Origin: Candidatus Moraniibacteriota bacterium
GTDB lineage: Bacteria > Patescibacteriota > Minisyncoccia > Moranbacterales > UBA1568
DNA length: 64,000 nt
Direction of reading: 5' to 3'
NCBI GenBank assembly: GCA_030648835.1
Contig: JAUSGT010000002.1
Location: forward strand, 309,458-373,457
The position numbers and the translations under genes were made by a program. Positions 8,461 to 60,673 of the stretch are shown piece after piece (within the stretch, counting starts at the first letter, position 1; every line of letters starts with the position of its first letter). The notes under the pieces are model-generated. The model was not told where the DNA came from. It did not search any database and saw only the letters and a list, made by a program, of their open reading frames with translations.

Positions 8461-8478
8461 TGGTGAAATGATATTAGG

Positions 8479-8643
8479 GTGTGCGCTCGGAGGGGATCTC
8501 CCTCGACTAAACTTTTGTCGTCACAAAAGTTTGTCTGGGCGCCGCTTCGTGATTTCGTCTGTTGACGAAATAACACTTCAGCGTTCGATTCCCTACGTAC
8601 GCCAAGCAGTTGGCGTACTCCTCGTGTGCGCTCGGAGGGGATC
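8479..8643 (-). mobile_element. tRNA-linked mini-insertion (family A): 20-bp direct repeat of the tRNA-Arg 3' end (8479-8498 and 8624-8643) flanking a 125-bp element
   Basis: gtgtgcgctcggaggggatc occurs twice; internal hairpin tcgactaaacttttgtcgtcacaaaagtttgtct; same family as 30.8 kb and 33.8 kb copies. Confidence 0.6.
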
Positions 8644-8700
8644 GAACCCCCGACCCTCTGGTTCGAAGCCAGATGCTCTAATCCACTGAGCTACGAGCGC
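8627..8700 (-). tRNA. tRNA-Arg (anticodon UCG)
   Basis: Cloverleaf: acceptor gcgctcg/cgagcgc, anticodon loop cttcgaa, T-arm ggttcgatcc; CCA not encoded. Confidence 0.8.
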
Positions 8701-9562: not shown

Positions 9563-9752
9563 TCTTATATCAAGTTGTATTGACTGGTTGTAGGTCATTT
9601 GATATGCTACGACCACTGTTTGAAGTATCCTTCAAACGAGTTCTTTTTTTTGGGCACATAGCTTCCGCCCAAGGCGGACCAGCCTTGGGCTGGCAGTTGG
9701 TAGGTGTATATAATCTCGGATTCTTAAGTTATTTTTTGAAGTATAAGAATTT

Positions 9753-9825
9753 GGGCACATAGCTCAGTTGGTAGAGCAGCGGCCTCTTAAGCCGACGGTC
9801 GCAGGTTCGATCCCTGCTGTGCCCA
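9753..9825 (+). tRNA. tRNA-Lys (anticodon CUU)
   Basis: gggcaca/tgtgccc acceptor, anticodon loop ctcttaa, T-arm ggttcgatcc. Confidence 0.85.
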
Positions 9826-21276: not shown

Positions 21277-21356
21277 AATGCTTAACTTAGTTAAATGATA
21301 TGAGTAGGATACCTCATTATCACAAACCAGTCAAGCACGTCACTGTGTTGCTTCTA

Positions 21357-21569
21357 TGTAGCCCCAAGGGGAGTTCCGCCTCGCTGTCTTTTGACAGCTT
21401 CGTTGCCCTGGGCAGCGCTGAATGCTCGCTTGCTCACATTCATCGACACTCGCCAGTCTCGCCTACGCTCGAAGGCTCGCACCTGCCCGTCCGACTCCCT
21501 AAAGAATATAAACAAAATTCCCACCCATGAAGATGAGTGGAAATTTTTGTTTGTAGCCCCAAGGGGAGT
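21357..21569 (-). mobile_element. tRNA-linked mini-insertion: perfect 18-bp direct repeat tgtagccccaaggggagt (21357-21374 and 21552-21569) flanking a 177-bp element at the tRNA-Glu 3' end
   Basis: Repeat read directly; second copy is the 3' end of tRNA-Glu. Confidence 0.6.
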
Positions 21570-21625
21570 CGGACCCCTCTTACCAGGATGAAAACCTGGT
21601 GTCCTAACCGATAGACGATGGGGCC
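21554..21625 (-). tRNA. tRNA-Glu (anticodon UUC)
   Basis: ggcccca/tggggct acceptor, anticodon stem accagg/cctggt with loop ttttcat. Confidence 0.8.
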
Positions 21626-30605: not shown

Positions 30606-30727
30606 CCCGTTAGAGATTATTATTTACTAAGCTATGATTTACAAGTCCAAAGCATATTTCCAGAACGAATCTTAAATCGTGAAGCAATCTCTAACGGGAT
30701 TCATATCTTTTGAGAAGTTACTTGAGG

Positions 30728-30874
30728 GTGCGCTCGGCAGAGAATCGGTCACAAATATTTTTCCTGACGGAAAAGTTTTTCGACTGCAGCGTTCCGACTT
30801 TCGATGCCTGACGTAAGTGAAGCAGCTCACTTACTCCTCAGCTCACTCACTTCATTCGTGTGCGCTCGGCAGGA
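30728..30874 (-). mobile_element. tRNA-linked mini-insertion (family A): about 14-bp duplication gtgcgctcggcag of the tRNA-Arg(CCG) 3' end flanking an approx. 120-bp element
   Basis: Direct repeat at 30728-30740 and 30860-30872; element end gctcactcacttcattcg matches the 33.8 kb copy. Confidence 0.55.
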
Positions 30875-30932
30875 ATCGAACCTGCATTTCATCCTTCGGA
30901 GGGATGTGTCTTATCCATTATACGACGAGCGC
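30861..30932 (-). tRNA. tRNA-Arg (anticodon CCG)
   Basis: gcgctcg/cgagcgc acceptor, anticodon stem catcc/ggatg with loop ctccgaa, T-arm ggttcgattcc. Confidence 0.75.
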
Positions 30933-32736: not shown

Positions 32737-32835
32737 GTGCGTTTGGCCCTCCTCCGTAAGACTTCGGACTGGTAAACCCTCCTTCGTAAAACTTCGGACG
32801 GGCGGGCAAGAAACTCCCTCGACTAAACTTCTGTC
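32737..32835. repeat. Composite repeat: 1.5 tandem copies of the 31477-type repeat followed by a truncated family-A element head (ctccctcgactaaacttctgtc) next to tRNA-Ser
   Basis: Read directly; shares gtcgactaaactt motif with tRNA-linked elements. Confidence 0.5.
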
Positions 32836-32873
32836 ATTCGTGTTGGCTTCTGCTTCTTTCGTTCGTTAACGTT

Positions 32874-33656: not shown

Positions 33657-33729
33657 GCGCTTGTAGCTCAGTGGATAGAGCATCTGGTTGCGGTCCAGAG
33701 GGTCGCAGGTTCGATTCCTGCCAAGCGCA
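33657..33729 (+). tRNA. tRNA-Arg (anticodon read as GCG; unusual, ACG expected)
   Basis: gcgcttg/caagcgc acceptor, anticodon stem tctgg/ccaga with loop ttgcggt. Confidence 0.65.
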
Positions 33730-33894
33730 CACGAACGAAGTGAGTGAGCCGAAGAGCGAGTGAACTGTTTCACTCGCGCCAGGAATCGAACGCCGGAGTG
33801 TTATTTCGTCAGGAGACGAAATCACGAGGCGGTGCCTAGACAAACTTTTATGTCGACAAAAGTTTAGTCGAAGGAGTTTCCTGCCAAGCGCACA
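33715..33894 (+). mobile_element. tRNA-linked mini-insertion (family A): 17-bp direct repeat ttcctgccaagcgcaca (33715-33731 and 33878-33894) flanking a 146-bp element
   Basis: Element is about 85% identical (reverse complement) to the 8.5 kb copy, incl. hairpin gtcgacaaaagtttagtcga. Confidence 0.65.
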
Positions 33895-33907
33895 TTTCAA
33901 AAACTTT

Positions 33908-34252
33908 ATGGGCCAAATAACGGGGGATGATTTTGAGAAAGTGGATATTCGCGTCGGAAAGATTATTGAGGTTTTGGATTTTCCGGAGGCGCGTAAGCCG
34001 GCGTATAAGCTGAAAGTTGATTTCGGATCTGAAGTCGGCATCAAACAATCAAGCGTCCAAGCCGTCGGTGCGCACACGAAGGAGGAGCTTCTCGGATCGC
34101 TCGTGTGTTGCGTGGTCAACTTTCCGTCCAAACAGATAGGCCCGTTCACGTCCGAAGTCTTGACACTGGGTTTCAGAAACAACGCAGGCGAGGGATGGAT
34201 TCTTATTGAGCCCAAGAAAACTGCTGTCGATCTCGGTAGCAGACTTGCCTAG
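33908..34252 (+). CDS. tRNA-binding protein (CsaA/Trbp111-like EMAP domain)
   Basis: VDIRVGKIIEV...KPAYKLKVDFG motif of the tRNA-binding OB fold. Confidence 0.7.
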   Translation: MGQITGDDFEKVDIRVGKIIEVLDFPEARKPAYKLKVDFGSEVGIKQSSVQAVGAHTKEELLGSLVCCVVNFPSKQIGPFTSEVLTLGFRNNAGEGWILIEPKKTAVDLGSRLA

Positions 34253-43075: not shown

Positions 43076-43123
43076 CATCAAGCATTTAGTATCGAGAGAG
43101 ACCCGAGAGCCTCGAGTTAATGT

Positions 43124-43834
43124 ATGAAAAATCAAGCACAGCACAGCCCCCTGGCTTTAACAACAAATGGCCTAATTGTGCCAGTTGGTTTTCCCGTAGC
43201 TTCATACGAATCAATCCACAGTATTGTAAGCACTGCTCAAGCGAGTCATTTATTGTATGAACACTACGCGGGAGCTTGGAATGCTTTAGCTTATCGTTTT
43301 AGGGCATCAATGGATCATGGTGATGCCTTCGTACTTCTGTTCAATAGTAATGGTCCTACACCTCCACCAGAAGAGCGGTACATGCAAGAGAAAGCCCTAT
43401 TTGATTTCTTTAGTGCAGGATTTTCGGTTTTTGAATCAACATTTTATGGTTTATATGTGATAGGCGCCTTTTTATCGCCCACTCTATTTTCTCTCTCATC
43501 CCAAAAAGAGCAACAGCAAATTACTCCAAACCGAACTAGAGATACATTTACCCGCGCATTTCCTTCCGATCCAATTTTGAATACCTTTTCAGCGCTGTTT
43601 ATGGATCCCGAATACCAAAAGTGGCGGGAAATTCGAAATGTACTTACGCATCGTACTGCGCCAGGTCGTCGAATATATGTAAGTATCGGAAGTGATGATG
43701 CACCACCTACAGAATGGAAGCTTAATAATAGCGTACTTGATGCTTCAATTGTGACAAATGGGAAAAGTGAACTTTCCCGTCTCTTAACTTGTTTATTAGA
43801 GGGCAGTGCAAAGTTTGTGGCAACACGATTATAA
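43124..43834 (+). CDS. Hypothetical protein (island cargo)
   Basis: 236-aa ORF, no motif recognised. Confidence 0.4.
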   Translation: MKNQAQHSPLALTTNGLIVPVGFPVASYESIHSIVSTAQASHLLYEHYAGAWNALAYRFRASMDHGDAFVLLFNSNGPTPPPEERYMQEKALFDFFSAGFSVFESTFYGLYVIGAFLSPTLFSLSSQKEQQQITPNRTRDTFTRAFPSDPILNTFSALFMDPEYQKWREIRNVLTHRTAPGRRIYVSIGSDDAPPTEWKLNNSVLDASIVTNGKSELSRLLTCLLEGSAKFVATRL

Positions 43835-44897: not shown

Positions 44898-46247
44898 TTA
44901 TGACAAAGCAGTTTCATATTTCCTGAGGATTAATTTTTTCTCTTTTGTCAGAATGAGTCGACTTTTGAGACTAGCGAGCAATTCCCGCTTTTCAATCATC
45001 TTTCCCTCTTTGAGAATATATTTAGCATACGTGCGTATATCAAAGGCCTCTTTCTTATCGACATCACTTTCTTTGCCATCCATTCTAAGAACCGTATGTT
45101 GGAACTTGTTGTAGCGATCGACCTCTTCTTCAAATTGTTTCTTCAGTCCGATTTCATTGATATCAATCTCATCGATAACATGGAGCATTTGTAAGATGAG
45201 TGCCTCTTCCCGCAAATAACCAAGCTTGCAAGTAAGATCTCTTGAGCGAGTGCATCCGTAGTAGATATACTTTGTTGTGCTGCCGTTTTTCAGTTTCTTG
45301 TATTTTTCATCAGCCGTAATGCCTGATCCGCAGAGTTCGCAGGTGAGGAGTTTGGTGAAGGCGAACTCTTTGCTGTCCCGTGTTATGCGATCGCGCTTCA
45401 GTTGCTCTTGGGTAAGTTCGAAAAGCTCTTTAGTAATAATGGGTTCGTGCTTGCCTTCATACCATTTACCACTCCCTCTTGGAAATTCAAAGGGGCCAGA
45501 GTAGAAAGATGTCTGGAGTATGCGATAAATGTTCCCGAGTGAAAGATTTTTGTTACCTTTAGACTTGAAGTTGATATCAAATTTGAGCCAGTGATAAACT
45601 TTCCGCCCGCTCCAGCGTTCGTAAGCCACTCTTTCAAACATTTTTCTGATGACTGGTCCGCGCTCAGGATCAACAATGACTTGGCCTCTACGATCAGGCG
45701 AGGTGACATTGAGATACCCGGTTGGCGCGCACGTTGGCCACATGCCCATCTCACAGCGCATACGGAGACCACGCTTCACATTCACGCCTCGATTATCATT
45801 TTCCAGTTTCGCTTGTGAGCCGAGAATCATCAGAAGAAACTTCTCATTGGGAGAATTTGTGAAAGATTGTCCGAAGGTACGAATTTCTTTGAGCTGTTTG
45901 GAATCCATCAGATCCACCAGTGATCCGAGGTCACCAGCATTTCTGCTCAATCGATCCGGCGCCCAGGTAAGGATGCCATTGAATCGATCTTTCCTGATGT
46001 CCTCAATGAGTTCGTTGTATACTGGCCGTTGTCCTGAGTTTTTGGCTGAATGGCTTTCCCTTCGAATCTCTATAATCTCTAGTCCATCTCGCTCAGCGAT
46101 CTGGAGCATTTCCTTTACTTGAGAATCTATGGAAAGCACCTGTCTTTCCTCTGATTCACTGCTCTTTCGAGCGTAGAGGCAGTACCTCGTTTTTAGTGGT
46201 ATTTCTGCCTCTACAGCTATTCGATTGGCCGGACTGTGTATATTCAT
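44898..46247 (-). CDS. Large serine recombinase
   Basis: YARKSS catalytic Ser region, recombinase domain, Cys4 zinc ribbon (CELCGS...YYGCTRSRD), C-terminal coiled coil. Confidence 0.85.
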   Translation of the reverse strand: MNIHSPANRIAVEAEIPLKTRYCLYARKSSESEERQVLSIDSQVKEMLQIAERDGLEIIEIRRESHSAKNSGQRPVYNELIEDIRKDRFNGILTWAPDRLSRNAGDLGSLVDLMDSKQLKEIRTFGQSFTNSPNEKFLLMILGSQAKLENDNRGVNVKRGLRMRCEMGMWPTCAPTGYLNVTSPDRRGQVIVDPERGPVIRKMFERVAYERWSGRKVYHWLKFDINFKSKGNKNLSLGNIYRILQTSFYSGPFEFPRGSGKWYEGKHEPIITKELFELTQEQLKRDRITRDSKEFAFTKLLTCELCGSGITADEKYKKLKNGSTTKYIYYGCTRSRDLTCKLGYLREEALILQMLHVIDEIDINEIGLKKQFEEEVDRYNKFQHTVLRMDGKESDVDKKEAFDIRTYAKYILKEGKMIEKRELLASLKSRLILTKEKKLILRKYETALS

Positions 46248-46363
46248 AGGTTTGTTCTTTACCCAATGAATGACGCAGACCGATGAACTAGTCCAGACCC
46301 CTCAAAAAGCCCTCAAACTGCCTATAATTTCACATTTTTGACAGAATGGAAGTGCACAAACAA

Positions 46364-47830
46364 TCATATAATCCATATCCTTGGTATGATCGGCGGATCT
46401 TCCATAGTGCTTAAAACGACGTTTGAAAACGCATCAGCAAGATCATCGTGAGCCTCAACACCGAAATGCACGATCTGATTAATTAACTCCTCGCATCCTT
46501 CTCGTGGAAAGAGTATTTTTCCGCTCTTGACTGCATAGGCTGTCAGTATGAGTCGCGTGCGCTTATCTTGATTTCCTGGTCTCGTTGTTTTGACCTTTCT
46601 GATACCCTCGCTTTGCAACTGTTGCGGTAGAGACCTCTGATACGCAACATCTTCAATAACAAATATAGGATGTTTGTCATTCTCTTTAAAGTAGGAACTA
46701 TCTATTGCTTTGCACATGTCCACTGTTTCTGGGAAATCCATCTTCCTATTTACTATTTGTGGCAAGATATATACCCTCAAATCTTTCCCGTCGCCATACA
46801 GCATTGCCGGTACCATGGCCGTATAATCCGCTGTGTCCTTTTTTGAGATCGCCAGGTCAACCCCGATACGCACTTCAACGTGTTTGTCATACCCTTGGCA
46901 ATCCTTTTCGCCATGCGGTAACTCATCATAAAATTGGATCCATTCTCGGTGAATAGCTTGTTCTTCATCGGCAACGATGTGAAGCATATATTCTCGCTCC
47001 CAAGCAAATTCGTTTCCCGCTTTTCTTTTTTCACTTTCAATATCTTCCATAGAAAGATATTTTCCAGGCCATAAAATCTCCTGACCTCTTATGATGGGGA
47101 ATTCTTTGAATACGCCATCGATTCTTTCTTTTTCTACATCTTCCTTGATTCGCATAAGAAGCGAATCTTCGTGAAGCAGATTCCCAACGATAACCAGTCT
47201 CGTATTGCGATCTCCTGTAGGAATAACTTCTGCGGTCAGCCACTGATATGTCTTATTTCTTCCTTCGCGAGTCTTGGTAGAAGCCATGTCTTCCACATCG
47301 TCACAGATAATAAGGTCTGGTCGATGTTGATTGTGCCGCAAACCACGGATACTTTGTTCGCGAGAAGCAGCTGTAATTCGGGCATTGAGTTGAGAAAATA
47401 CAAGAGACGATGAACCCCATTCATCGGACTCCTCACGAAATGGCCCAAGATCATTCTTGAGAGTCGCGTTATTCTCTAGCTCTTGCCGGAGGTTCATCAT
47501 ATGTTGCTTCGCCTGTGATTGAGTCTGGCAAAGGATGAGCGCAAATTTTTTCTGTTGTCTGCCAAGAATCGCCCAGATTGGGTAGGAGGTGGTAAGTATC
47601 GTAGATTTTCCGCTGCCTCGGAAAGCGACAACGAAGAAATTACCAGCATTTTCGTTTTCCGAAAGATCAAACATCTCTGCTTGGAACTGAGCGGTCGGGT
47701 ATTTAACGTAATGGGCGAAGTAAAAATGGAAAAAGTGCCAGTGGCTTTCTTTAATGATTGCCACTCTGACTTTTCGATCCCTGATCATCGCCTCCGCTAA
47801 CCCCGGGGTTATTGTCCTTCTGTTGTTCAT
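46364..47830 (-). CDS. Phage terminase large subunit
   Basis: Walker A AFRGSGKST, Walker B ICDDVED, C-terminal RNaseH-like nuclease (IGVDLAISKKDTADYT). Confidence 0.8.
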   Translation of the reverse strand: MNNRRTITPGLAEAMIRDRKVRVAIIKESHWHFFHFYFAHYVKYPTAQFQAEMFDLSENENAGNFFVVAFRGSGKSTILTTSYPIWAILGRQQKKFALILCQTQSQAKQHMMNLRQELENNATLKNDLGPFREESDEWGSSSLVFSQLNARITAASREQSIRGLRHNQHRPDLIICDDVEDMASTKTREGRNKTYQWLTAEVIPTGDRNTRLVIVGNLLHEDSLLMRIKEDVEKERIDGVFKEFPIIRGQEILWPGKYLSMEDIESEKRKAGNEFAWEREYMLHIVADEEQAIHREWIQFYDELPHGEKDCQGYDKHVEVRIGVDLAISKKDTADYTAMVPAMLYGDGKDLRVYILPQIVNRKMDFPETVDMCKAIDSSYFKENDKHPIFVIEDVAYQRSLPQQLQSEGIRKVKTTRPGNQDKRTRLILTAYAVKSGKILFPREGCEELINQIVHFGVEAHDDLADAFSNVVLSTMEDPPIIPRIWII

Positions 47831-48221
47831 AAGATTGTGTCGTTATTTGATTTACTGAAGATAATCGCAGTGCTTCGCGAACGATCTCTTCCTGCTCTGG
47901 AGTAAGCACATCCTGAGACTGAATGTTGGCCGTTACTTCTACGCGCTCACGGAATTTCTGATGTCGGTGCCGGAGCCAGAAGCTGATCGCTTGATAACTC
48001 TTATCTCTGATAAGCGAAATGAGCTGAGATTCAGACATGTCGTTGATAAGCGCCTCGCCTTCGCTCAAAGCTTCTTCGAGTGATTGGCGAAACTTCTCGT
48101 CCTCATCTCGCCAGCGGTAGACGGAAGAACGCGCGACACCGACCTTTTCGCACGCCACCTGGATAATGGGAATCTTGCGGAGTTGCTCGAGAAATAAAAT
48201 CTTGGCTCGATCCTTTTTCAT
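47751..48221 (-). CDS. Terminase small subunit-like HTH protein
   Basis: N-terminal HTH VGVARSSVYRWRDE; immediately upstream of and overlapping terL. Confidence 0.5.
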   Translation of the reverse strand: MKKDRAKILFLEQLRKIPIIQVACEKVGVARSSVYRWRDEDEKFRQSLEEALSEGEALINDMSESQLISLIRDKSYQAISFWLRHRHQKFRERVEVTANIQSQDVLTPEQEEIVREALRLSSVNQITTQSYEQQKDNNPGVSGGDDQGSKSQSGNH

Positions 48222-49549
48222 AAGATTTTTTTCGGCTTTAATCCGGTTAATTTCGACCAGCGATTCAGAATCACCTCAGCGTAGATGGGGCTTTTTTCCA
48301 TCAGAAAACACTTGCGCTGCATTTTCACCGCTGCAATCAAAGTCGAACCGCTTCCACCATAGGGCTCAAAGATGAGATCGCCTCGCTTGGTCAGTATCTT
48401 GATGTAGGGAATAAGTATTTCCAGAGGTTTCGTGCCGAAAATAATTCCCTGTCCGGAAGATTTTTCATCGGCAGCGATATGCTCAATAAAATCAGTTGGG
48501 CAATACTTCTTGCCTTTGCCATAAGATTCCCAGTGGGGACTGCCCGAGGTTGCGAAAAGCGCCGTTTCGTATTCGGTTTGAAGCAATGCATCCGATTCTG
48601 GTTCAACGTTCAGCTCAACCTTGCCCGAAGTGCCGACCATTGCGAAGTCATGCTTATTGAAGAATTTATATTTGGCGCTAAATCCTTGAACGCGATTGGG
48701 GATATGCCAAATAATTGTATTTCTGTATTTCCAATGTTTTTCTAACTCATTCCAGATAGTCCGAAGATTTTTTGGATTCTCATAGACGATGATCGAAAAG
48801 TCTGGCTCCTGAATCTTGGCGACATTGTTCATCCAGAGTTCGGTAAAGTTGTCCGGGAGTGTTTCAGTGCCTAGATACACTCGATCGCGTTTTAACCCGA
48901 AGCCTTTGGTTACATTGCCGTTTTTCTTTTTCTTACCCTTGAGGTAATCCAGAAGATACGGAGGGTCCGTGAAGCACATATGCGCCTTATGTCCGTCAAA
49001 AAGTGTTAGAACATTTGCTTCAATTGTGGAATCCCCAATCATTACTCTGCTACCGTTTAGGTCGTATACTTCGCCGCTCTTTACTTTGATTTTTGTTATG
49101 TCTAACTTCGCCAGTTCTTTCTCTAAATCAAATACTTCTGGCGTTTCATCAATTCCAAAAATTTCGTCCATTTCTTCGCTCGAGAACCCAACGCTCCCGA
49201 GGAACTGTTCGCTGAAGTTGGAAAGAATATCCCAATCGAACTCGCCGGTGTTTTTATTCAGGCGAATATTCAGTTCCTTTTCTTTTTCCAAATCAGGAAT
49301 AGAAATGTATACCACTGGTACCTCTTTGATGCCGAGCTTCTTGGCCATAGCCAGGCGGAAGTGGCCACCGATGAGAATGTTCATTCGTTCCGATGCCGAA
49401 TTTACTACGAACGGGTCGACCAACCCGAATCGTTTGATACTTTCCTGAAGCTGGGTTTCTGCCTCCTTGCTCCATTTGCGCGGATTATATTCTGACGCCT
49501 TGAGGAGCGTGACGTCGACGTACTGCACCTGCAATTTTTCTTTTGGCAT
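48218..49549 (-). CDS. ParB-like nuclease domain fused to N4/N6 DNA methyltransferase (phage-type orphan MTase)
   Basis: N-terminal ParB/Srx motif (YNPRKWS...GGHFRL), MTase motif IV TDPPY and motif I FEPYGGSGST. Confidence 0.8.
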   Translation of the reverse strand: MPKEKLQVQYVDVTLLKASEYNPRKWSKEAETQLQESIKRFGLVDPFVVNSASERMNILIGGHFRLAMAKKLGIKEVPVVYISIPDLEKEKELNIRLNKNTGEFDWDILSNFSEQFLGSVGFSSEEMDEIFGIDETPEVFDLEKELAKLDITKIKVKSGEVYDLNGSRVMIGDSTIEANVLTLFDGHKAHMCFTDPPYLLDYLKGKKKKNGNVTKGFGLKRDRVYLGTETLPDNFTELWMNNVAKIQEPDFSIIVYENPKNLRTIWNELEKHWKYRNTIIWHIPNRVQGFSAKYKFFNKHDFAMVGTSGKVELNVEPESDALLQTEYETALFATSGSPHWESYGKGKKYCPTDFIEHIAADEKSSGQGIIFGTKPLEILIPYIKILTKRGDLIFEPYGGSGSTLIAAVKMQRKCFLMEKSPIYAEVILNRWSKLTGLKPKKIL

Positions 49550-50919: not shown

Positions 50920-53862
50920 ATGGCGAAAATTACTTCCTATCATGCAAAATATTTTGCCCACGAGCTAACTAAGCGGTGTTCTTCGGATAGCTTAGAAAAA
51001 CTATCCTCAACACTTTCTAACGCTCAAGTTGATCTGAACCCTCATCAGATTGAGGCGGCACTTTTTGCATTTAAATCGCCGCTTTCTAAGGGAGCAATTC
51101 TGGCTGACGAAGTTGGTTTAGGGAAAACAATTGAAGCCGGCTTGGTGCTGTCTCAAAAATGGGCGGAACGAAAAAGAAAGATTTTATTAATAGTGCCGTC
51201 TAGTCTTAGAAAGCAGTGGAACTCAGAACTTCGAGAAAAGTTTTTTTTGCCATCAATAATTTTAGAAGCAAAATCTTTTAATCAAACTGTCAAAGAAGGT
51301 AATCTCAACCCTTTTAATCAGGATAACGCAATTATCATTTGTTCTTATCACTTCGCTAGAGCCAAATCATCCTATATCAAACAAACCCCTTTTGATTTAG
51401 TGGTTATTGATGAAGCACATCGTCTGCGTAATGTTTATAAAACGAGTAGTAAAATTGCCCGAGAAATAAAAGATGCCATTCAAGAATATCCTAAGCTACT
51501 TCTCACTGCCACTCCTTTGCAAAATTCTTTACTCGAGCTATACGGATTAACCAGTATTATTGACGACCATATTTTTGGGGATCTCAGTAGTTTTAAGGCG
51601 AATTATGCCAAAGTTTCACGAGAGCAGGATATTTACGAAAACGAGCTTGGTTTAGTTGAGCCGAGACAAGAAATGTTTGCTGATTTGCGTAATAGACTAA
51701 AGCCAATTTGTATTCGTACACTGCGTCGCCAGGTTTTGGAATATATTAATTATCGCGATCGCAAACCAATCACTCAGGACTATGTACCGACTGAGCAAGA
51801 AATTGAACTTTATGATGGGATGACTGAGTATCTTCAACGCCCACGTCTTTATGCTTTGCCGTTTAGCCAGCGTCAGCTTATGACGCTTATTTTACGCAAA
51901 CTTTTAGCCTCGTCATCATTTGCTATTGCCAGTACGCTCAATGGATTGGTCTATAAGTTAGAAAAATTGGAAGAAGAAATAAGAAAAAAATCAGCGGTGT
52001 TAGACGAAACACTTCCTTTAGGGATTGAAGAAAATTATGAGGCTTTTGAAACTACAGCTGATGAATGGATTGACGATGAGGAAGAAGAGATTGATGACAA
52101 GATAAAAGAAAAGAAAAAGTATACACTCGAAGATATTCCTTTGATTCAATCAGAAAAAACAGACCTAGAAAAATTTAGAGACTTAGCAAGAGCCATTTTC
52201 AAAAATTCCAAAGGAGAATCCTTGCTCATTGCTTTAGAAAAAGGTTTCGAAATGACTGCAACGCTTGGTGCTCAGAAAAAAGCAGTTATTTTTACAGAAT
52301 CAAGAATCACTCAGGATTATCTCTGGAAACTACTTTCGGATAGTGGTTACAAAGACAAAATGCTCTTATTCAATGGTTCTAATAATGATCAAAAGTCAAA
52401 AGATATTTATGCTGAATGGTTGAAGAAAAATAAAGACACTGACAACATAACAGACTCGAAGACCGCAGACCTTCGTGCCGCACTGGTGGACTACTTCAAG
52501 TCGGATGCCGAGATTATGATTGCTACTGAAGCGGCTGCTGAAGGCATCAACCTACAATTCTGTTCACTTGTTATCAACTATGATCTCCCATGGAATCCTC
52601 AAAGAATTGAGCAGAGAATTGGCCGTTGTCATCGTTATGGACAAAAACATGATGTAGTTGTGGTCAACTTTGTAAATCGAAAAAACGCTGCTGATCAGCG
52701 CGTTTATGAACTGCTTGATCAAAAGTTCAAACTTTTCAAAGGCGTTTTTGGGGTAAGCGATGAAGTGCTTGGTAGTATTGAGTCAGGGGTTGATTTTGAA
52801 AAACGTATTGCAGCTATTTACCAATCCTGTCGCACCGAGGAGGAAATCAACAATGCTTTTGACACCTTACAGACAGAAATGGACGATTCGATTCAGGAAG
52901 GCATGCGCGGAGCGAAAGAAAAACTTCTGGAAAATTTTGACGCGGATGTACATGAAAAACTCAAGATAAATTTGCGTGAGAGCAAGGGATATTTAGAAAC
53001 TTATGAAAAGTGGCTCTGGGATATCTCTCAGTACTTTCTAGGTGACAAAGCGGTTTATGCTGAAGATGAATATTCTTTTACACTTAAACGCAATCCATTT
53101 CCTGATGAAGATATTGATGAAGGTCCTTATAAAATTGGTAAAAATATTGATGATGCTCACATTTACCGTCCAGGACATCCTCTGGCTGAGAGAATTTTGC
53201 GTGAGGTAAAAGCACAGTCGTTATCAAGCGCTGAAATAGTTTTTGATTATTCCAATCACGGAAATATTATTTCTCCAATTAAAGAGTTGGTTGGTACTAG
53301 CGGTATTTTACAAGTATCAGAATTGACTATTGACTCGTTTGAAACCGAAGACAATATTCTGGTGACAGCAATAAAAAACAATAGCGAAGTAATTGAAGAA
53401 GATGTCGCAAAAAAACTTTTCTTACTCAGTGCTGAGGTGAAGGGAGATACTATCAAAACAGTAAGCGAAGAGGTTCAACAAAGAGAGCAGGAAAAGGTAA
53501 ATATTCTTACTGCAAGCATTGCCGGACGTAACAGCGAATTTTTTGATGATGAGGTAGACAAGCTTGATAAGTGGGCTGAAGATGTGAAAAAGAGTATGGA
53601 AATAGAACTCAAGCGTATGGATATTGATATTAAAACAATGAAAACGAACGCCAAAAAAGTCTTGAATTTAGGAGAAAAGGTAAAACTTCAACGAGAAATA
53701 AAGGATTTAGAAAAGAAACGAAACGATATGCGTCAGAAACTTTATAAGGCACAAGACGAAGTAGATGTGAAGAAAGAGAATTTACTGGAGAAAGTAGAAG
53801 CACAGCTGAAACAAAAAATGACGCTTGCACCATTATTTACAATACGATTTAAGGTGATATAA
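50920..53862 (+). CDS. SNF2-family helicase/ATPase with about 380-aa C-terminal coiled-coil extension
   Basis: Motif I DEVGLGKTIEAG, II DEAHRLRN, III LLLTATPLQNSLLELY, VI NPQRIEQRIGRCHRYGQ. Confidence 0.85.
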   Translation: MAKITSYHAKYFAHELTKRCSSDSLEKLSSTLSNAQVDLNPHQIEAALFAFKSPLSKGAILADEVGLGKTIEAGLVLSQKWAERKRKILLIVPSSLRKQWNSELREKFFLPSIILEAKSFNQTVKEGNLNPFNQDNAIIICSYHFARAKSSYIKQTPFDLVVIDEAHRLRNVYKTSSKIAREIKDAIQEYPKLLLTATPLQNSLLELYGLTSIIDDHIFGDLSSFKANYAKVSREQDIYENELGLVEPRQEMFADLRNRLKPICIRTLRRQVLEYINYRDRKPITQDYVPTEQEIELYDGMTEYLQRPRLYALPFSQRQLMTLILRKLLASSSFAIASTLNGLVYKLEKLEEEIRKKSAVLDETLPLGIEENYEAFETTADEWIDDEEEEIDDKIKEKKKYTLEDIPLIQSEKTDLEKFRDLARAIFKNSKGESLLIALEKGFEMTATLGAQKKAVIFTESRITQDYLWKLLSDSGYKDKMLLFNGSNNDQKSKDIYAEWLKKNKDTDNITDSKTADLRAALVDYFKSDAEIMIATEAAAEGINLQFCSLVINYDLPWNPQRIEQRIGRCHRYGQKHDVVVVNFVNRKNAADQRVYELLDQKFKLFKGVFGVSDEVLGSIESGVDFEKRIAAIYQSCRTEEEINNAFDTLQTEMDDSIQEGMRGAKEKLLENFDADVHEKLKINLRESKGYLETYEKWLWDISQYFLGDKAVYAEDEYSFTLKRNPFPDEDIDEGPYKIGKNIDDAHIYRPGHPLAERILREVKAQSLSSAEIVFDYSNHGNIISPIKELVGTSGILQVSELTIDSFETEDNILVTAIKNNSEVIEEDVAKKLFLLSAEVKGDTIKTVSEEVQQREQEKVNILTASIAGRNSEFFDDEVDKLDKWAEDVKKSMEIELKRMDIDIKTMKTNAKKVLNLGEKVKLQREIKDLEKKRNDMRQKLYKAQDEVDVKKENLLEKVEAQLKQKMTLAPLFTIRFKVI

Positions 53863-53866
53863 AAAT

Positions 53867-55570
53867 ATGAGCAATAACAAACAAAAACTAGAGCTCACGT
53901 GGATCGGGAAAAATAACCCCGAGTATGATATCTCCAACATTGAACCGCGCATCTTGGAAGAGCGGACTGATTTGTCATATGGTGATAAGGAGAGTGAGAA
54001 CATGATCATCCATGGTGACAACCTCCTCGCACTCAAGGCGCTTCTACCTGAATATGAGGGCAAAATAAAATGTATCTATATTGACCCACCATACAATACA
54101 GGTAATGCCTTTGAACATTACGACGATAGCGTGGAACACTCAACATGGCTCTCACTAATGAAGCCGCGGTTGGAACTTTTAAGAATGCTATTGAGTGAAG
54201 ATGGTGTTATTTTTATTCAAATAGACAATTCGGAGCAAGCGTATTTGAAAGTTCTATTAGACGAGGTTTTCCAAAGAAACAACTTTATTACGTCGTTTAT
54301 TCTTAAAGTTAGACATTCGGAACGAATGCTAAAAGGAGATAAAGATATTCATGATGTTGCTGAATACGTGCACTGTTATCAAAAATCAAATCAATTTAAA
54401 ATCTCAAAGAGAAAACAGGTAGTCGCAGATGATCCATACGAAGATTATCAGTGGGCAGTAAAAACAATTGGAACTGGAAAAACACTTGTATTGGGAAATA
54501 AAGAGTGCCGTGTTTTTAAGCCCGGTGAATATGAATTAACACGTTTAGACGGAAATAAAAGCGGGTTCAAAAAGATCAACATTCGTGGCGGACTAAGAGA
54601 AGGAAATAGTAGTGGTAGATTTTATGTTGCTCATATTGAACAAAGACTTCAGAATGATGGTTATAACGTTTTATACGAGGTACCTAATATTGGTGATGAT
54701 GGGACAGGACGCAGATATTTTCTTTTACCAGAAAATATGAAAAAGAAAAATGGTAATTATTTTCAGGGAGTACCACAAACACGAACTTCATCAAAAGATC
54801 TTCCATACCCATCTTTCTTCGATGTCTCTGCAGCTTTTAACCGTGTCGGCTACGAAGGAGTTGTCGAATTTCGAAATTCTAAAAAGCCGGAATCACTCAT
54901 TAAGACTTTTTTTGAAATAGCAAATTTGTCTAGCAACGATTGGATTTTAGATTCATTTCTTGGTTCTGGTACCACGGCTGCAGTAGCCCACAAAATGAAT
55001 TTTAATTATATCGGCATAGAAATGGGCAACCATGCTTATTCTCATGTCCATAAACGAATGAAAGCCGTTATTGATGGCGAGGATCATAGTGGAATCAGCG
55101 AAGCTGTGAACTGGCACGGAGGAGGAGGATTTAAATTTTATGAGCTTGCACCGAGTTTTATTGTGAAAGACGAATTTGGGAATCCTGTGATTGATAGTTT
55201 TTATAATGACGCTAAACTTATTAAAGCCATGTGTAAGCTGATGAACTTTACATATCAGCCAAGTCAAACAGAATATTGGAAGCACGGCGTGGGTCAAGGA
55301 AAGAACTATCTTTATGTTACTACTCAGCTTTTGACAAGCGGGATGATTCAGCAGATTGCAGGACATCTTACTGAGGGTGAGTCTTTGATAGTTTGTCCGA
55401 AGAAGTTTGAACCTGGTGCGGATAAAATTGATAGCCGTATTACTATTAAAAAAATACCGCAGTCGGTTCTGAAAGCTTGTCACTTTGGCAAAAAGGAATA
55501 TCTACTTCCAATCAAGGAATCCGCTCTGGAAGAGATAGAGGATGAATCACTAGAAGATGATAACGAATAA
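53867..55570 (+). CDS. N6-adenine DNA methyltransferase, beta-class (type III Mod-like)
   Basis: Motif IV IYIDPPYNTGN precedes motif I DSFLGSGTTAAVA; EHSTWLSLMKPRLELL region typical of Mod; 4 nt after SNF2 stop. Confidence 0.85.
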   Translation: MSNNKQKLELTWIGKNNPEYDISNIEPRILEERTDLSYGDKESENMIIHGDNLLALKALLPEYEGKIKCIYIDPPYNTGNAFEHYDDSVEHSTWLSLMKPRLELLRMLLSEDGVIFIQIDNSEQAYLKVLLDEVFQRNNFITSFILKVRHSERMLKGDKDIHDVAEYVHCYQKSNQFKISKRKQVVADDPYEDYQWAVKTIGTGKTLVLGNKECRVFKPGEYELTRLDGNKSGFKKINIRGGLREGNSSGRFYVAHIEQRLQNDGYNVLYEVPNIGDDGTGRRYFLLPENMKKKNGNYFQGVPQTRTSSKDLPYPSFFDVSAAFNRVGYEGVVEFRNSKKPESLIKTFFEIANLSSNDWILDSFLGSGTTAAVAHKMNFNYIGIEMGNHAYSHVHKRMKAVIDGEDHSGISEAVNWHGGGGFKFYELAPSFIVKDEFGNPVIDSFYNDAKLIKAMCKLMNFTYQPSQTEYWKHGVGQGKNYLYVTTQLLTSGMIQQIAGHLTEGESLIVCPKKFEPGADKIDSRITIKKIPQSVLKACHFGKKEYLLPIKESALEEIEDESLEDDNE

Positions 55571-55575
55571 ATACT

Positions 55576-58401
55576 ATGAGACCTGAGGAAGCGCTCAAAT
55601 ACCTCAATGGCGCGATGAGTTTGCACGCTCCGCAAGTAAAGAGTCTGGAGCTTTTTGCTCATTATTTGCAGTCACCAGCTGGGCAAAAATTGTTGTTACG
55701 CATGAAAAAAGAAGTGCGTGGCAATACAGCTGAGATATTAGCAGAAAGCAAAGCATACTTCAGTACTGTTCCCGAAGCACGCGAGTTTGAGGAATATGAA
55801 AGAGCGTTCCCGGCTTACACCTTTGCACTCGCTACCGGCGTAGGCAAAACCAGGTTGATGGGTGCTTTCGTAGCATATTTGTATTTGGTATATAATATTC
55901 AGCACTTTTTGATTGTTGCACCAAACCTGACTATTTATCGCAAGCTCTATGATGATTTTAGTAAGGCAAATAATCCTAAGTATGTTTTTAAGGGTATTCA
56001 AGAAGTAAATACAAATACGGTAAAAGTCATTACCACAGAAAATTACGCTAACTATAGACAGCAATCACTCTTTCTTAATCAGATTGAAATCAATATTTTT
56101 AATATCCAACAGTTCGCACAGAGGGATATGACCAGTGAGCGCGGTATTACGAAAGCGTGGGAAACCGCTGGGGAGTCCTATTTTGACTATTTAAAAGCGC
56201 ATGATGATTTAGTGGTGATGTTAGATGAAGCCCACCACTACCATGCGGATGCGGCCCTTGGCGCACTCGATTTGATGGATCCTCTATTTGGACTAGAAAT
56301 GACTGCTACACCATACCTTGGGACTCAAGGTACGGGCAGAAATGCAAGACAAATCAGAATGAAAAATGTTTTGTATTCCTATAACCTTGGTGATGCTATC
56401 CGAGGCAAGCTTGTCAAAGATCCATGGATAGGCACTGAAGCAGATGTGGATTTCAGTCAATTTGATCCTGACTCTATTGATACTGACGCGCGCAAATTGC
56501 AACTGGCGGCTTTTTTTCACGAACGTGCTAAAAATGCACTGAAGGAGTATGCGTTGGAAAATAATAAGCCGATTGTAAAACCGGTTATGTTGGTGGTAGC
56601 AAAAGACACAACACACGCAGGAGAGTTACGCGCTTTGATTGATAGCGATAATTTTCGTGGTGGAGAATTTAAGGGAAAGGTTATTGAGATACACACTAAA
56701 CTTCGTGGAGATGAGGCAGATGAAAATATTGATAAATTAATTTCACTTGAACACCCCGATAATCCAGTGGAGATTGTGATTCACGTCAATATGCTCAAGG
56801 AAGGTTGGGATGTGACAAATGTGTATACCATTGCGCCTTTGCGTGAGGCAGCTGCCGCGATTTTGACCGAGCAGACAATCGGGCGTGGTTTACGCTTACC
56901 TTACGGAGAACGCACCGGCATACCTTTGGTAGACAGACTGGTGCTCGTTGCTCACGAACAGTTTGCTAAAGTTGTGGCACTTGCTAAAGACTCACCACTT
57001 ATTCAAGGACAGGTTGAACAAATTTCAGAGAGAGAAGCTAAAGAAGTTAAAGTGTTCACCGAAGTTCAGTCCGTTGCTCTTGATGCCGTTAAAGATGCAA
57101 TAACGCAAAATGAAGTGGTGATGCAAGAGGTTGAAAAACAAGTTGAAGAAGAGATTGCTAAAATGCCGCAAGCAGATTTAATGGATGAATCAGTAAAAGG
57201 AAAAATGAAAGAAACCAAGACAGATGAAAAAGTAACTGGCTTATCAAAAATTGTATGTGGAATTAATACATTTTCTAGTTATCACGGGCAAAAACTGAGT
57301 GTTTCACCAGAGCTGTCCTTTGGAACTGATACATTGTTTGGATTTTTCAGTGATGAAGCAAAAGGTGAGCTCTCAAGGATTGCAAAAAAATCTGGAGAGG
57401 CAATGGAAGAAAGAAATATACCAATTCCGCGTTTGATGCTTACCCCGCACTTTGGTGAACTTTTGATAGAACAATTTGATTTGGATACGAGTGTATTACG
57501 TACATATACTAATGAGCGAGCTATTCTTGAAGAACAATTACAAAATGATCGTGAGAAAAATTTATTTGATGAAGAAGTTCCAGGACGTCGAATGACTGAA
57601 GTAACAAGAATAAGCAGTTTTGGTGCGCATACGAGACAGACTCCACAAAGCACTATAATTGCTTCGCTTCTTGATTTTCCGTTGGTTGATTATGATGATC
57701 CTTCGCAAAAACCATTGCTTCTGAGATTAGCAGAGCAAGCTGTCATACATTATCGAGAAAAGGCGATTGATGAAGATAATCTTGCCCTGATTGTTGAAAG
57801 TAACGCGCGTACAATTGCCGAAGATATTTATCAGCAGATTTTGACACATAAAGAATTGAAGTCTGAGGGATATCTTGAGTCCGATGTGCGTGAACCGAAA
57901 CCATATTTGGAACAGTATAATATTTCCTTGTTGTTTGGAGAAAAACCTGTTTCTCTTGAATCACAGCTAAATACTTTTAGTGCCAAACTTGTCTATGGAC
58001 AGTTTCAAAAGGCCTGCCACTCAATGTATCGTTTTGATTCTTCAGATGAAGTACGTCTAGCGTATTTATTAGATCGTGAAGATTCAGTTGAAGATTGGTT
58101 ACGCCCAGCCCCTAATCAATTTGAGGGCTTGTATTGGCGTGATATAGAAGGAGAGTCTCATCATCGCTACGAACCAGATTTTGTTGTTGAATTTGAAAAT
58201 GAGATAGTAATGATAGAAGTGAAGCCGGAATTAGAAATCCAAGCTCTAAGCGTACAGGCAAAAAAACAAACCGCAGAAAAATACTGTGAGGTAGTGAATA
58301 AAAATATTGGAAAGTTTGGTATCATAAAGCCATGGCGGTATGTGATTGTTCCCACAGAAAAAATAACAATAAGTTCTACGATAGATGGATTGTTGAGTTG
58401 A
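55576..58401 (+). CDS. Type III restriction Res-like subunit: DEAH helicase + C-terminal PD-(D/E)xK nuclease
   Basis: Walker A ATGVGKT, motif II VVMLDEAHHY, III EMTATPY, VI QTIGRGLRLPYG; C-terminal EPDFVVEFENEIVMIEVKPE. Confidence 0.8.
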   Translation: MRPEEALKYLNGAMSLHAPQVKSLELFAHYLQSPAGQKLLLRMKKEVRGNTAEILAESKAYFSTVPEAREFEEYERAFPAYTFALATGVGKTRLMGAFVAYLYLVYNIQHFLIVAPNLTIYRKLYDDFSKANNPKYVFKGIQEVNTNTVKVITTENYANYRQQSLFLNQIEINIFNIQQFAQRDMTSERGITKAWETAGESYFDYLKAHDDLVVMLDEAHHYHADAALGALDLMDPLFGLEMTATPYLGTQGTGRNARQIRMKNVLYSYNLGDAIRGKLVKDPWIGTEADVDFSQFDPDSIDTDARKLQLAAFFHERAKNALKEYALENNKPIVKPVMLVVAKDTTHAGELRALIDSDNFRGGEFKGKVIEIHTKLRGDEADENIDKLISLEHPDNPVEIVIHVNMLKEGWDVTNVYTIAPLREAAAAILTEQTIGRGLRLPYGERTGIPLVDRLVLVAHEQFAKVVALAKDSPLIQGQVEQISEREAKEVKVFTEVQSVALDAVKDAITQNEVVMQEVEKQVEEEIAKMPQADLMDESVKGKMKETKTDEKVTGLSKIVCGINTFSSYHGQKLSVSPELSFGTDTLFGFFSDEAKGELSRIAKKSGEAMEERNIPIPRLMLTPHFGELLIEQFDLDTSVLRTYTNERAILEEQLQNDREKNLFDEEVPGRRMTEVTRISSFGAHTRQTPQSTIIASLLDFPLVDYDDPSQKPLLLRLAEQAVIHYREKAIDEDNLALIVESNARTIAEDIYQQILTHKELKSEGYLESDVREPKPYLEQYNISLLFGEKPVSLESQLNTFSAKLVYGQFQKACHSMYRFDSSDEVRLAYLLDREDSVEDWLRPAPNQFEGLYWRDIEGESHHRYEPDFVVEFENEIVMIEVKPELEIQALSVQAKKQTAEKYCEVVNKNIGKFGIIKPWRYVIVPTEKITISSTIDGLLS

Positions 58402-60389: not shown

Positions 60390-60673
60390 GGGGTTTTTTT
60401 TCAGAGAGTAAAAAAATAGTCAGGTACCATTTTGGTAGGAATTTTCTCAGCCCTGGTTCGTTTTTAGTGGCTTGATTTATTCTTCAAAAAGAGTAGGATA
60501 CAAGCACAACTGAATAGTGAATTATCTAGAGAGTGGCGAGAGCACTGGCTCACTGACCCACCGGCAACCCTTGGCAACAAGAAGGTGCCCCATCCAGCCC
60601 TGGAAAGGGAAAGATATCGGTCGATTCTTTCTCTGTCTCTGGACAGAGTTTTTGATTTTCTAACGATAATACT

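Follow-up and report, generated by a model that had tools for sequence, protein, structure and literature searches.

What process leaves the same small, non-coding insert behind different transfer RNA (tRNA) genes of one genome, each time followed by a copy of the tail of the very tRNA beside which it lies? This question is raised by a 64,000-nt stretch of DNA (hereafter, the window) from a Candidatus Moraniibacteriota bacterium (assembly GCA_030648835.1, contig JAUSGT010000002.1, positions 309,458 to 373,457), in which an earlier note, made from the letters alone, had pointed to three tRNA-Arg genes with homologous inserts at their 3′ ends. These inserts were recovered with lengths of 125, 146, and 112 nt, too small to encode anything, and the tRNA tail is repeated beyond each of them (20/20 nt, 17/17 nt, and 19 nt with one indel). 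The chances are judged to be about even that these elements are non-autonomous, structure-dependent mobile DNA modules that target the 3′ ends of tRNA and transfer-messenger RNA (tmRNA) genes in trans. The family is rated as previously undescribed and as combining the traits of tRNA-targeting integrative elements with those of folded recombination sites.

Elements of the window and their anatomy

The tRNAs of the window were located with ARAGORN and Rfam, which gave nine tRNA genes in 64 kb, and a covariance model, R1, was built from the family alignment. Three of the nine tRNAs bear family members or their remains, while a fourth bears a related family. The features of the family in the window are as follows, with the strand in brackets and with E standing for the expectation value.

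8626–8700 (−): tRNA-Arg(UCG), intact, anchor and target of copy 1 (ARAGORN; Rfam tRNA, 71 bits)
8624–8643 (−): proximal repeat of tRNA-Arg(UCG), from G57 of the T-loop to 3 nt beyond the tRNA 3′ end, belonging to the functional tRNA
8499–8623 (−): element copy 1, 125 nt, intact (R1, 113.1 bits, E 2e-33 over 8478–8597)
8597–8618 (−): copy 1, hairpin 1 (from sequence)
8579–8596 (−): copy 1, inverted copy of the T-loop and 3′ T-stem (from sequence)
about 8541–8583 (−): copy 1, hairpin 2 / P3–P5 (from sequence and covariation)
8500–8539 (−): copy 1, long hairpin 3 with base CCC/GGG, then the GAGGGA junction (from sequence and covariation)
8479–8498 (−): distal direct repeat of the tRNA-Arg(UCG) tail, 20/20 against 8624–8643
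30860–30932 (−): tRNA-Arg(CCG), anchor of copy 2 (ARAGORN, Rfam)
30747–30858 (−): element copy 2, 112 nt, decayed (by alignment; R1 only 10 bits, E 0.3)
30727–30746 (−): distal repeat of the tRNA-Arg(CCG) tail, longer than 30859–30877 by a 1-nt insertion, with a longest exact run of 13 nt
32742–32872 (−): truncated relic adjoining tRNA-Ser(UGA), with GACAGAAGTTTAGTCGAGGGAG, which differs from the motif at one position (fragment 32814–32873)
33657–33730 (+): tRNA-Arg(GCG), intact, anchor of copy 3 (ARAGORN, Rfam)
33732–33877 (+): element copy 3, 146 nt, intact (R1, 109.8 bits, E 2.2e-32 over 33777–33896)
Within copy 3 (+): linker with GAACGAAGTGA; hairpin 1, 33756–33777; inverted T-loop copy, 33778–33796; hairpin 2; hairpin 3, 33835–33874
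33878–33894 (+): distal direct repeat of the tRNA-Arg(GCG) tail, 17/17 against 33715–33731

Copies 1 and 3 are 84.3% identical over 121 aligned nt, in keeping with the first estimate of about 85%, copies 2 and 3 are 75.9% identical, and the three copies differ pairwise by 16–29%. Three full copies had been counted; by the model only two are intact (113 and 110 bits), and the third, copy 2, is decayed, scoring only 10 bits because its central hairpin is deleted. Its linker, hairpin 1, and inverted T-loop copy can still be recognised, with hairpin 2 gone and hairpin 3 diverged. When the 300 nt downstream were shuffled 2000 times, a repeat of at least 12 nt arose in 0 of 2000 trials. The truncated copy reported next to tRNA-Ser(UGA) is also real, although its terminal repeat is of the Arg(GCG) type and not of the tRNA-Ser type: a linker-like start leads into the 3′ half of hairpin 3 and GAGGGAG, behind which lies the Arg(GCG)-type repeat (GTTTCTTG...CCAAACGCACC), which is interrupted by two 30-nt mini-repeats at the junction of T-stem and acceptor. 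These tandem mini-repeats (CCCTCCTYCGTAARAYTTCGGAC..., 32742–32810) constitute a nested family of mini-insertions, of which loci L003 (about 1155–1190) and L092 carry one 30-nt unit at the same position as in the window relic; loci are cited here by such numbers.

Read in the sense of the tRNA, the elements of the family are non-coding segments of about 110–190 bp that lie immediately 3′ of a tRNA or tmRNA gene. In the window copies, L003, and L005, the gene is followed by a linker of about 17 nt with GAACGAAGTGA, and elsewhere by the tRNA's own bidirectional terminator. The next part is an inverted Watson–Crick copy of the acceptor 3′ strand, by which, at 14 of 74 loci, a perfect palindrome of 22–30 bp is completed that takes in 8–12 nt of the tRNA. 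Behind it stand hairpin 1 and then the 3′ T-stem and T-loop in inverted copy (NNGGAATCGAAC; ..GGAATCGAAC). Both the common hairpin and the "T-arm-like" segment GCGTTCGATTCC noticed earlier were confirmed, the latter, read on the opposite strand, being this inverted copy of the T-loop and 3′ T-stem. The core begins with helix P3 (CGNC/GN′YG), where all four Watson–Crick combinations are found at N/N′, and continues with a GGA/GA internal loop, hairpin 2, GGUGCCYA, the long hairpin 3, whose base CCY/RGG covaries, and GARGGA. Last, the tRNA is repeated in direct orientation from G57 to about C74. Counted from the inverted T-stem/T-loop copy up to a point 20 nt beyond GARGGAG, the length is nearly constant, at 117–125 nt in most copies.

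The distal repeat is recognisable in 64 of 74 copies, with its left end fixed at G57 and its right end variable, and has a median length of 18 nt (range 6–38 nt). After N59, it contains no insertion in 13 copies, an insertion of 1–3 nt in 26, and one of at least 8 nt in 24; by eye, about 20 of these 24 long insertions are mini-hairpins of the GCGAAGC or GTGTAYTCAC type. Where the tRNA and the distal repeat mismatch, the inverted copy sides with the tRNA in 41 cases and with the distal repeat in 2, and the helix that the inverted copy would form with the distal repeat is not kept by compensation; as the inverted copy is also the more diverged one overall, the test rules out no more than that. 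All three tail copies are therefore tRNA-derived. Where the acceptor or T stem of the tRNA has a non-Watson–Crick pair, the 5′-side strand of the element complements the tRNA 3′ strand 39 times and copies its 5′ strand once, and the inverted segment is therefore a true inverted repeat of the gene tail; a duplicate of the tRNA gene with replaced arms is ruled out by the same test. The pairing runs on through the discriminator and the bases that follow it.

Fold, hosts, and turnover of the family

An RNAalifold analysis of 111 sequences gave 27 pairs, 21 of them with compensatory changes. Standard pairs fill 94.8% of the cells, compared with 70.6% in column shuffles and 36–46% with slid partners, and both sides have changed in 757 cells, compared with 229 expected. 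Besides hairpins 2 and 3, hairpin 1 shows compensatory differences (L079 compared with L128). The core fold is kept by selection, and about 35 unpaired core positions are nearly invariant across deep lineages. Since both the fold and these unpaired positions are conserved, a conserved partner that reads the fold is implied.

The family was collected by scanning species-representative genomes with a 22-nt motif of hairpin 3 and metagenome contigs with a gapped pattern anchoring both feet of hairpin 3. The 22-nt motif was found in seven species-representative genomes, six of them labelled Patescibacteria (Moranbacteria, Paceibacterota, "Patescibacteria group"); the seventh is labelled Bdellovibrionales and has Moranbacteria-like synteny. 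In this record (L001, "uncultured Bdellovibrionales bacterium"), the element occurs together with a tRNA-Ser/Arg/Arg synteny common to Moranbacteria contigs, and the bin is probably mislabelled or contaminated. The gapped pattern matched at least 120 metagenome contigs, and the two scans together yielded at least 111 distinct copies after removal of duplicates and two chance matches. Among the matches listed, the host is a member of the Patescibacteria in every record with a named source, bar the Bdellovibrionales label.

A tRNA or tmRNA gene lies on the same strand within 300 nt upstream of 86 copies, and the orientation is identical in 86 of 86 assignable cases, by which an invertible segment is ruled out. 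A further 16 copies could not be assigned for nearness to a contig end, and 29 have no upstream tRNA, being by eye mostly second units of arrays or copies behind degenerate tRNA tails. Among the matches listed, the genes served are those of five Arg isoacceptors, Ser, Glu, Ala, Trp, Gln, Lys, Asp, Asn, Gly, Leu, His, Val, Ile, Thr, Cys, Met, Tyr, and Phe, a suppressor tRNA, and tmRNA. The view that the family is limited to tRNA-Arg, with a remnant at tRNA-Ser, has thus to be given up: copies stand behind about 20 tRNA identities and tmRNA, and their flanks are cognate each time. R1 gave 121 matches at E ≤0.001, spread over 95 loci; a locus often has two or three of them, whose scores lie far apart, and several subfamilies therefore coexist. 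The top score, 123.8 bits, belongs to a full-length element at L099 (about 20–290) behind a suppressor tRNA (anticodon UUA, reading UAA), which hints at a recoded organism or a phage-like replicon among the hosts. At several loci on different contigs, near-identical cores occur behind different tRNAs (Gln in L079 and L128, Gly in L096, and, somewhat less alike, Glu in L076) with perfectly cognate arms. The sole, partial case of a non-cognate arm is L018, where Arg-CCU is followed by a Phe-type inverted T copy; it hints that cores move or convert independently of arms.

Presence and absence at orthologous tRNA loci, the check put forward in the earlier note, could be followed at three sites, at each of which filled and empty states are seen. 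At Arg(UCG), in the M23 peptidase / tRNA / SIMPL locus, the site is filled in the window, L129 (SIMPL identity 88%), and L005, decayed in L134 (75%), and empty with a plain terminator in L131 and L133 (79%). The SIMPL protein next to copy 1 is itself 100% identical to one of a Candidatus Moranbacteria metagenome-assembled genome, on a contig of 635,596 bp. At Arg(UCU), in the Lys-Arg-His cluster, L131, L132, and L103 are filled (a 163-nt element and a 17-nt repeat), and the window and L134 are empty; L134 and L131 have an identical tRNA here and share the far flank ATCCA(G/C)AGTGG. At Arg(GCG), the window and L003 are filled, and L001 and L004 are empty. These comparisons give a contrast between empty and filled orthologous sites, from which the direction of change does not follow.

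Stacked or tandem units are found in L004, L127, L070, L002, L050, and L109, and other core families are stacked with this one in L041, L051, L083, and L022. A second core family has the form TCGAAGCCCGATTGAG ... GGGTACTGA-hairpin-TCGA followed by the tRNA tail, and each unit of an array ends in its own tail copy. L007 and L112 contain paired solo units. In L112 (3100–6350), two near-identical units, each made up of tail end, trailer, element, and tail, surround 3 kb of genes for a multicopper oxidase (whose sequence motifs are NirK-like), a PNPOx-like protein, and an unknown protein, with no recombinase among them. The second unit of L112 and the solo units of L091, L108, and L007 start at GTTC|GGAGC, directly after a conserved hairpin CGAAC-ATCGTCCCARG-GTTYG. 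In L070 (816–1850, −), a complete IS110-family insertion sequence (PF01548 and PF02371; a 344-aa DEDD transposase; inverted ends of about 14 bp) is nested in the inverted T-loop copy of an element at AATCGA|TCGAAC; the elements are therefore used as landing pads, in the way that IS110 relatives use REP sequences. Dispensable, patchy, multi-copy, stacked, decaying, and open to such insertions, the elements behave like selfish non-autonomous DNA.

A partner gene was sought in the window and beside the other copies. A Pfam scan of 39 open reading frames (ORFs) of the window found no tyrosine recombinase or integrase and no HUH enzyme; it returned housekeeping genes, LexA, RecG, a prophage-like block, and a block with SNF2, methylase, and ResIII domains. 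The sole recombinase found, a large serine recombinase in the prophage-like block (44.9–49.5 kb), is unrelated to the elements. When 1416 ORFs of the loci were clustered, no family occurred in more than 9 of about 127 loci, only housekeeping genes recurred, and no recombinase family was enriched near the elements across about 127 loci. A bridge or seek RNA of the IS110 type was ruled out, as only L070 has an IS110 gene, nested with its own ends, and tblastn over the loci gave no IS110 transposase copies beyond it. An arrangement resembling TnpB and omega-RNA, with a scaffold and a 3′ guide, was set aside, since what would be the guide pairs with a complement inside the element, and neither a TnpB nor an IscB gene was seen. 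With Rfam 15 at the gathering score, only tRNA and the SAM riboswitch were found in the window; relaxed searches of copy 1 (E up to 10) and of six full-length members (E up to 1) gave nothing relevant, only hairpin noise, and the sequence upstream of solo copies gave nothing. The full gapped pattern matched 0 of the 2.9 million viral contigs of IMG/VR, and a viral match of a 19-nt motif (L008) was dismissed as chance, as it lies within a coding region. A full-text literature search returned no description of such tRNA-end elements.

A proposed mobile DNA module and its rivals

If the elements are mobile, the modules would insert and be lost at tRNA and tmRNA 3′ ends through a recombinase or transposase encoded elsewhere, and this enzyme would read the folded core and not the linear sequence. 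In a single-stranded form, the inverted and direct copies would pair into a duplex that reproduces the tRNA gene's 3′ end beside the core, and recombination between this folded site and a resident tRNA would leave an intact tail, an inverted tail, the core, and a displaced tail. In this scheme, we infer the single-stranded intermediate, the enzyme, the crossover point, and the matching of arms to a new tRNA.

Several known systems share parts of this design; their features are background knowledge here, and the elements are compared with them by description. Like the islands of tyrosine (P4-like) integrases, the elements have a tRNA or tmRNA 3′ target, a repeat of 17–20 bp from the T-loop to the end, an intact gene, and tandem occupancy, and an identity block from T-loop to 3′ end was reportedly recognised by Williams in 2002 as the mark of T-loop-class (P4-like) integrases. 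Unlike such islands, they measure 110–190 bp instead of kilobases, have no integrase and no cargo, contain a covarying folded core instead of arm-type protein sites, carry an extra inverted copy of the target, and serve about 20 tRNAs with one core family. The earlier reading of the flanks as an integration signature resembling attL and attR, the two junctions of an integrated element, therefore holds for the repeat from T-loop to 3′ end; the extra inverted tail copy is not predicted by a plain attL/attR pair, and a covarying folded core is not expected of lambda-type att arms.

The attC sites of integrons (IntI) and the CTX-phi attP hairpin (XerCD) are folded single-strand sites, and when such a site is integrated, a direct-inverted-direct arrangement is left; the recombinase acts in trans and is encoded by the host or by a platform. 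The elements resemble them in a structure that is conserved while its sequence covaries, in two inverted target-like segments that pair into a duplex site, in the direct-inverted-direct arrangement, and in being non-coding with a recombinase in trans, which for the elements is a proposal. They differ in targeting tRNA ends instead of attI or dif, in a stem that copies a different target at each locus, and in a large conserved junction loop. Compared with the attC R-box (RYYYAAC/GTTRRRY), the ATCGAAC/GTTCGAT of the elements has one mismatch, and the same letters are simply those of the T-loop. Similarly, REPIN/RAYT elements and the PATEs derived from IS200/IS605 are short, non-autonomous, many-copy hairpins kept by compensation, for which a single-copy enzyme elsewhere is presumed, and they too serve as landing pads for the IS110 family; in contrast to the elements, they have no target duplication or target-derived arms and are dispersed between genes without a tie to tRNA ends. 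The junction of the elements after GGTTC in the T-loop is compatible with a fixed 4–5 nt motif of the PATE type, a likeness that is inseparable from universal tRNA conservation, and no Y1/HUH gene (TnpA, RAYT) was found among the 39 scanned ORFs of the window. Miniature inverted-repeat transposable elements (MITEs) and Rickettsia palindromic elements are likewise 100–200 bp long, without an ORF, stably folded by prediction, and patchy among relatives, and the Rickettsia elements also lie within RNA genes, including tmRNA. However, MITEs have element-specific terminal inverted repeats, duplications of 2–10 bp, and a recognisable parent insertion sequence, whereas the elements have as their only inverted repeat a locus-specific copy of the adjoining tRNA's tail, they show a duplication of about 18 bp, and a search for a parent found none.

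A number of points weigh against mobile DNA as the explanation. The weakest is how the arms come to be cognate to about 20 tRNAs, since we know of no recombination mechanism that alone would bring this about. Under the folded-site model, a jump to a different tRNA predicts non-cognate arms, of which L018 is the only, and a partial, case. No simple one-step model accommodates the divergence from the tRNA, which overall is 12–13% for the inverted copy and 6% for the distal repeat. No recombinase partner could be linked to the elements among the window ORFs and locus neighbours, and neither an excised nor a circular form has been seen. The tRNA-sense strand is weakly favoured, as its minimum free energy is lower in 68 of 74 copies, meaning slightly better folding, and G-U pairs outnumber A-C pairs by 59 to 36. 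The window copies also lack a terminator after the tRNA, and a role for the elements as RNA is therefore possible. A function for the host could account just as well for the very strong conservation of the unpaired nucleotides in the core.

A bolder extension is that the elements represent a new class of gene-less module, with arms re-templated from the tRNA or tmRNA beside which it has landed, with the conserved folded core lodged between the inverted and the direct copy of the target strand, and with the inverted copy acting as an 18-nt guide of DNA (or RNA) or duplex mimic; such a module would be structure-guided, self-reprogramming, specific for the acceptor/T minihelix, and restricted to the Candidate Phyla Radiation. 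This extension is tentative, and its chance is put well short of even.

The first rival, which is considered unlikely, holds that the element is a functional structured RNA, transcribed as a 3′ trailer with or after the tRNA, whose closing helix copies the acceptor/T minihelix. Its conserved junction would be the binding site of a conserved protein or have a part in tRNA processing, as a decoy, or in regulation, and its patchiness would come from dispensability and not from mobility. Strong covariation with conserved unpaired nucleotides, the better folding of the sense strand, and the excess of G-U over A-C pairs (59:36) would suit such an RNA. Read-through transcription is to be expected at copies 1 and 3, since no predicted terminator or promoter separates them from the tRNA, and copy 3 ends 14 nt before a gene for a protein with a tRNA-binding domain (PF01588). 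The topology is also tRNA-like, in that a 5′ acceptor-like strand, a hairpin, a T-stem-like strand, and an expanded loop are followed by the 3′ strands of T-stem and acceptor. The tRNA-like domain of tmRNA, YrlA, mascRNA, and 3′-trailer small RNAs have in common with the elements an acceptor/T-stem-like closing helix, the trailer location, and a conserved structured body. However, functional RNAs usually contain far more G-U than A-C pairs, and in a hand tally of paired cells, G-U makes up only about 2% (59), close to the A-C share of about 1.2% (36). The G-U pairs of the tRNA are replaced by Watson–Crick pairs (39:1), unlike what RNA mimicry would give; the low G-U content and the 39:1 complement result point to pairing at the DNA level. 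At many loci, the tRNA is separated from the element by a hairpin and T-run that resemble a bidirectional intrinsic terminator and leave no space for a promoter. Moreover, the helix between the element and the distal repeat lacks compensatory co-evolution, the inverted copy following the tRNA (41:2), and the multiple copies per lineage, decay, arrays, and filled and empty sites also speak against this rival. In contrast to the known tRNA-like RNAs, the elements have a helix that stays Watson–Crick beyond the discriminator, have lost the tRNA's G-U pairs, are often preceded by terminators, occur in many copies with decay, and match no Rfam family at E up to 10. The small-RNA option left open at the outset is thus disfavoured by the near-absence of G-U pairs and by the terminators that precede the element at many loci.

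An improbable rival dispenses with an enzyme altogether and takes the layout as the product of a replication template switch, with turn-arounds at the terminator hairpin and the T-arm that leave a triplication with an inverted middle copy; the core would spread by copy-choice or gene conversion through microhomology in the T-loop (TCGAAC on one side, GA on the other). The layout is exactly such a triplication, its boundaries lie on universal tRNA nucleotides (G53–A58) that would make any tRNA or tmRNA usable, and the arms are Watson–Crick copies of the local 3′ strand. The perfect palindromes at 14 of 74 loci, the cores that are near-identical while arms and hairpin 1 differ, and the fact that no enzyme was found also speak for it. 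A template switch nevertheless leaves the compensatory helix changes and about 35 near-invariant unpaired positions unexplained, as well as the linker-type copies of the window, which have no palindrome centre, and the position of hairpin 1 within the inverted copy, and a microhomology of 6 nt is weak for repeated, precise events.

It is very improbable that the elements are scars of classical integrase islands or prophages, whose interior has been deleted so that the attL and attR arms were fused between tail copies. This would account for the T-loop-to-3′-end repeat, for the use of both tRNAs and tmRNA, for stacked units resembling tandem integrations, and for the 3 kb of accessory genes between the units of L112. 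Independent deletions, however, would not leave the same 120-nt structure of near-constant length in more than 100 loci; att arms are arrays of protein-binding sites and not covarying hairpins; and the inverted tRNA copy goes unexplained, with no integrase beside any copy and no viral match. Finally, although the source is a metagenome-assembled genome, an assembly artefact through collapsed tRNA paralogues or chimeric joins, which the earlier note had allowed for, has virtually no probability, given the same architecture in more than 100 independently assembled contigs from many projects and assemblers, the orthologous copy in L129 (linked by SIMPL at 88%), and the differences of 16–29% between the window copies.

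Related insertions, neighbouring genes, and implications for Patescibacteria

A second kind of insert stands behind tRNA-Glu(UUC) (21553–21625).

21352–21552 (−): 178-nt insert behind tRNA-Glu(UUC), together with the 23-nt tail repeat, of the same layout with a different core

Its tail repeat (21352–21374 against 21547–21569) matches at 21 of 23 positions, and it consists of a palindromic terminator, AGGGAGTCGGAC as the inverted copy of the T-loop, a structured core, ...GAGGCGGA, and the tail repeat. With a non-significant R1 score of 6.6 bits, it is best taken as a second, related family and not as a member.

Other small insertions lie at further tRNA ends. The first 12 nt of tRNA-Lys(CUU) and 3 upstream bases are repeated exactly 101 nt upstream (9649–9663 and 9750–9764), forming a 5′-end counterpart of the 3′ duplications; the 86 nt between the repeats contain two short GC hairpins and a promoter-like pair TTGGTA...TATAAT. 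In L131 (2965–3140, −), a duplicated pseudo 5′ half of tRNA-His, reaching to the anticodon loop, lies just upstream of the real tRNA-His, and in L130 (1150–1268), tRNA-Arg(UCU) is followed by a 78-nt insert of a different kind, which has GGAGGTTCGATTTCCTCC as a direct T-arm-like hairpin. In this lineage, small duplicative insertions have a general hot spot at the ends of tRNAs. A trailer ATCAAGC..TAGTATCGAGRGWGACCCGAGAGCCTCGA with a hairpin is common to two tRNA-Ser genes (window 43077–43125; L001 after tRNA-Ser UGA) and may be another tRNA-linked motif.

Among the neighbouring genes, a 114-aa protein with a tRNA-binding domain (PF01588, CsaA/Trbp111-like; 33908–34252) is encoded 14 nt past the distal repeat of copy 3, with no terminator between. 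A prophage-like block (44898–49549) lies just downstream of tRNA-Ser(GCU) and contains a large serine recombinase (Resolvase, Recombinase, and Zn ribbon), a terminase large subunit, and a ParB-N/DNA methylase protein. It is adjoined by a block of three genes (50920–58401), whose products are a helicase of the SNF2 family, an N6/N4 DNA methylase, and a ResIII-domain protein; the block is likely a restriction or defence island. A SAM-I riboswitch (Rfam RF00162, 53.8 bits) is present at 60519–60618 (+).

The genomes of Patescibacteria are tiny, contain essentially a single gene for each tRNA, and are regarded as poor in mobile elements, and yet one family of gene-less modules takes a large share of the tRNA and tmRNA 3′ ends across the radiation. 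If the modules are RNAs, they would form a new and abundant class of tRNA-linked RNA. If they are mobile, essential RNA genes would be targeted safely by means of target-cognate arms and a folded core, and an as yet unrecognised recombinase would be implied in Patescibacteria. Either way, the elements offer a practical marker for contigs of Patescibacteria and are a likely source of rearrangements and of assembly and annotation errors at tRNA loci, while the conserved core provides a defined handle for finding the partner protein.

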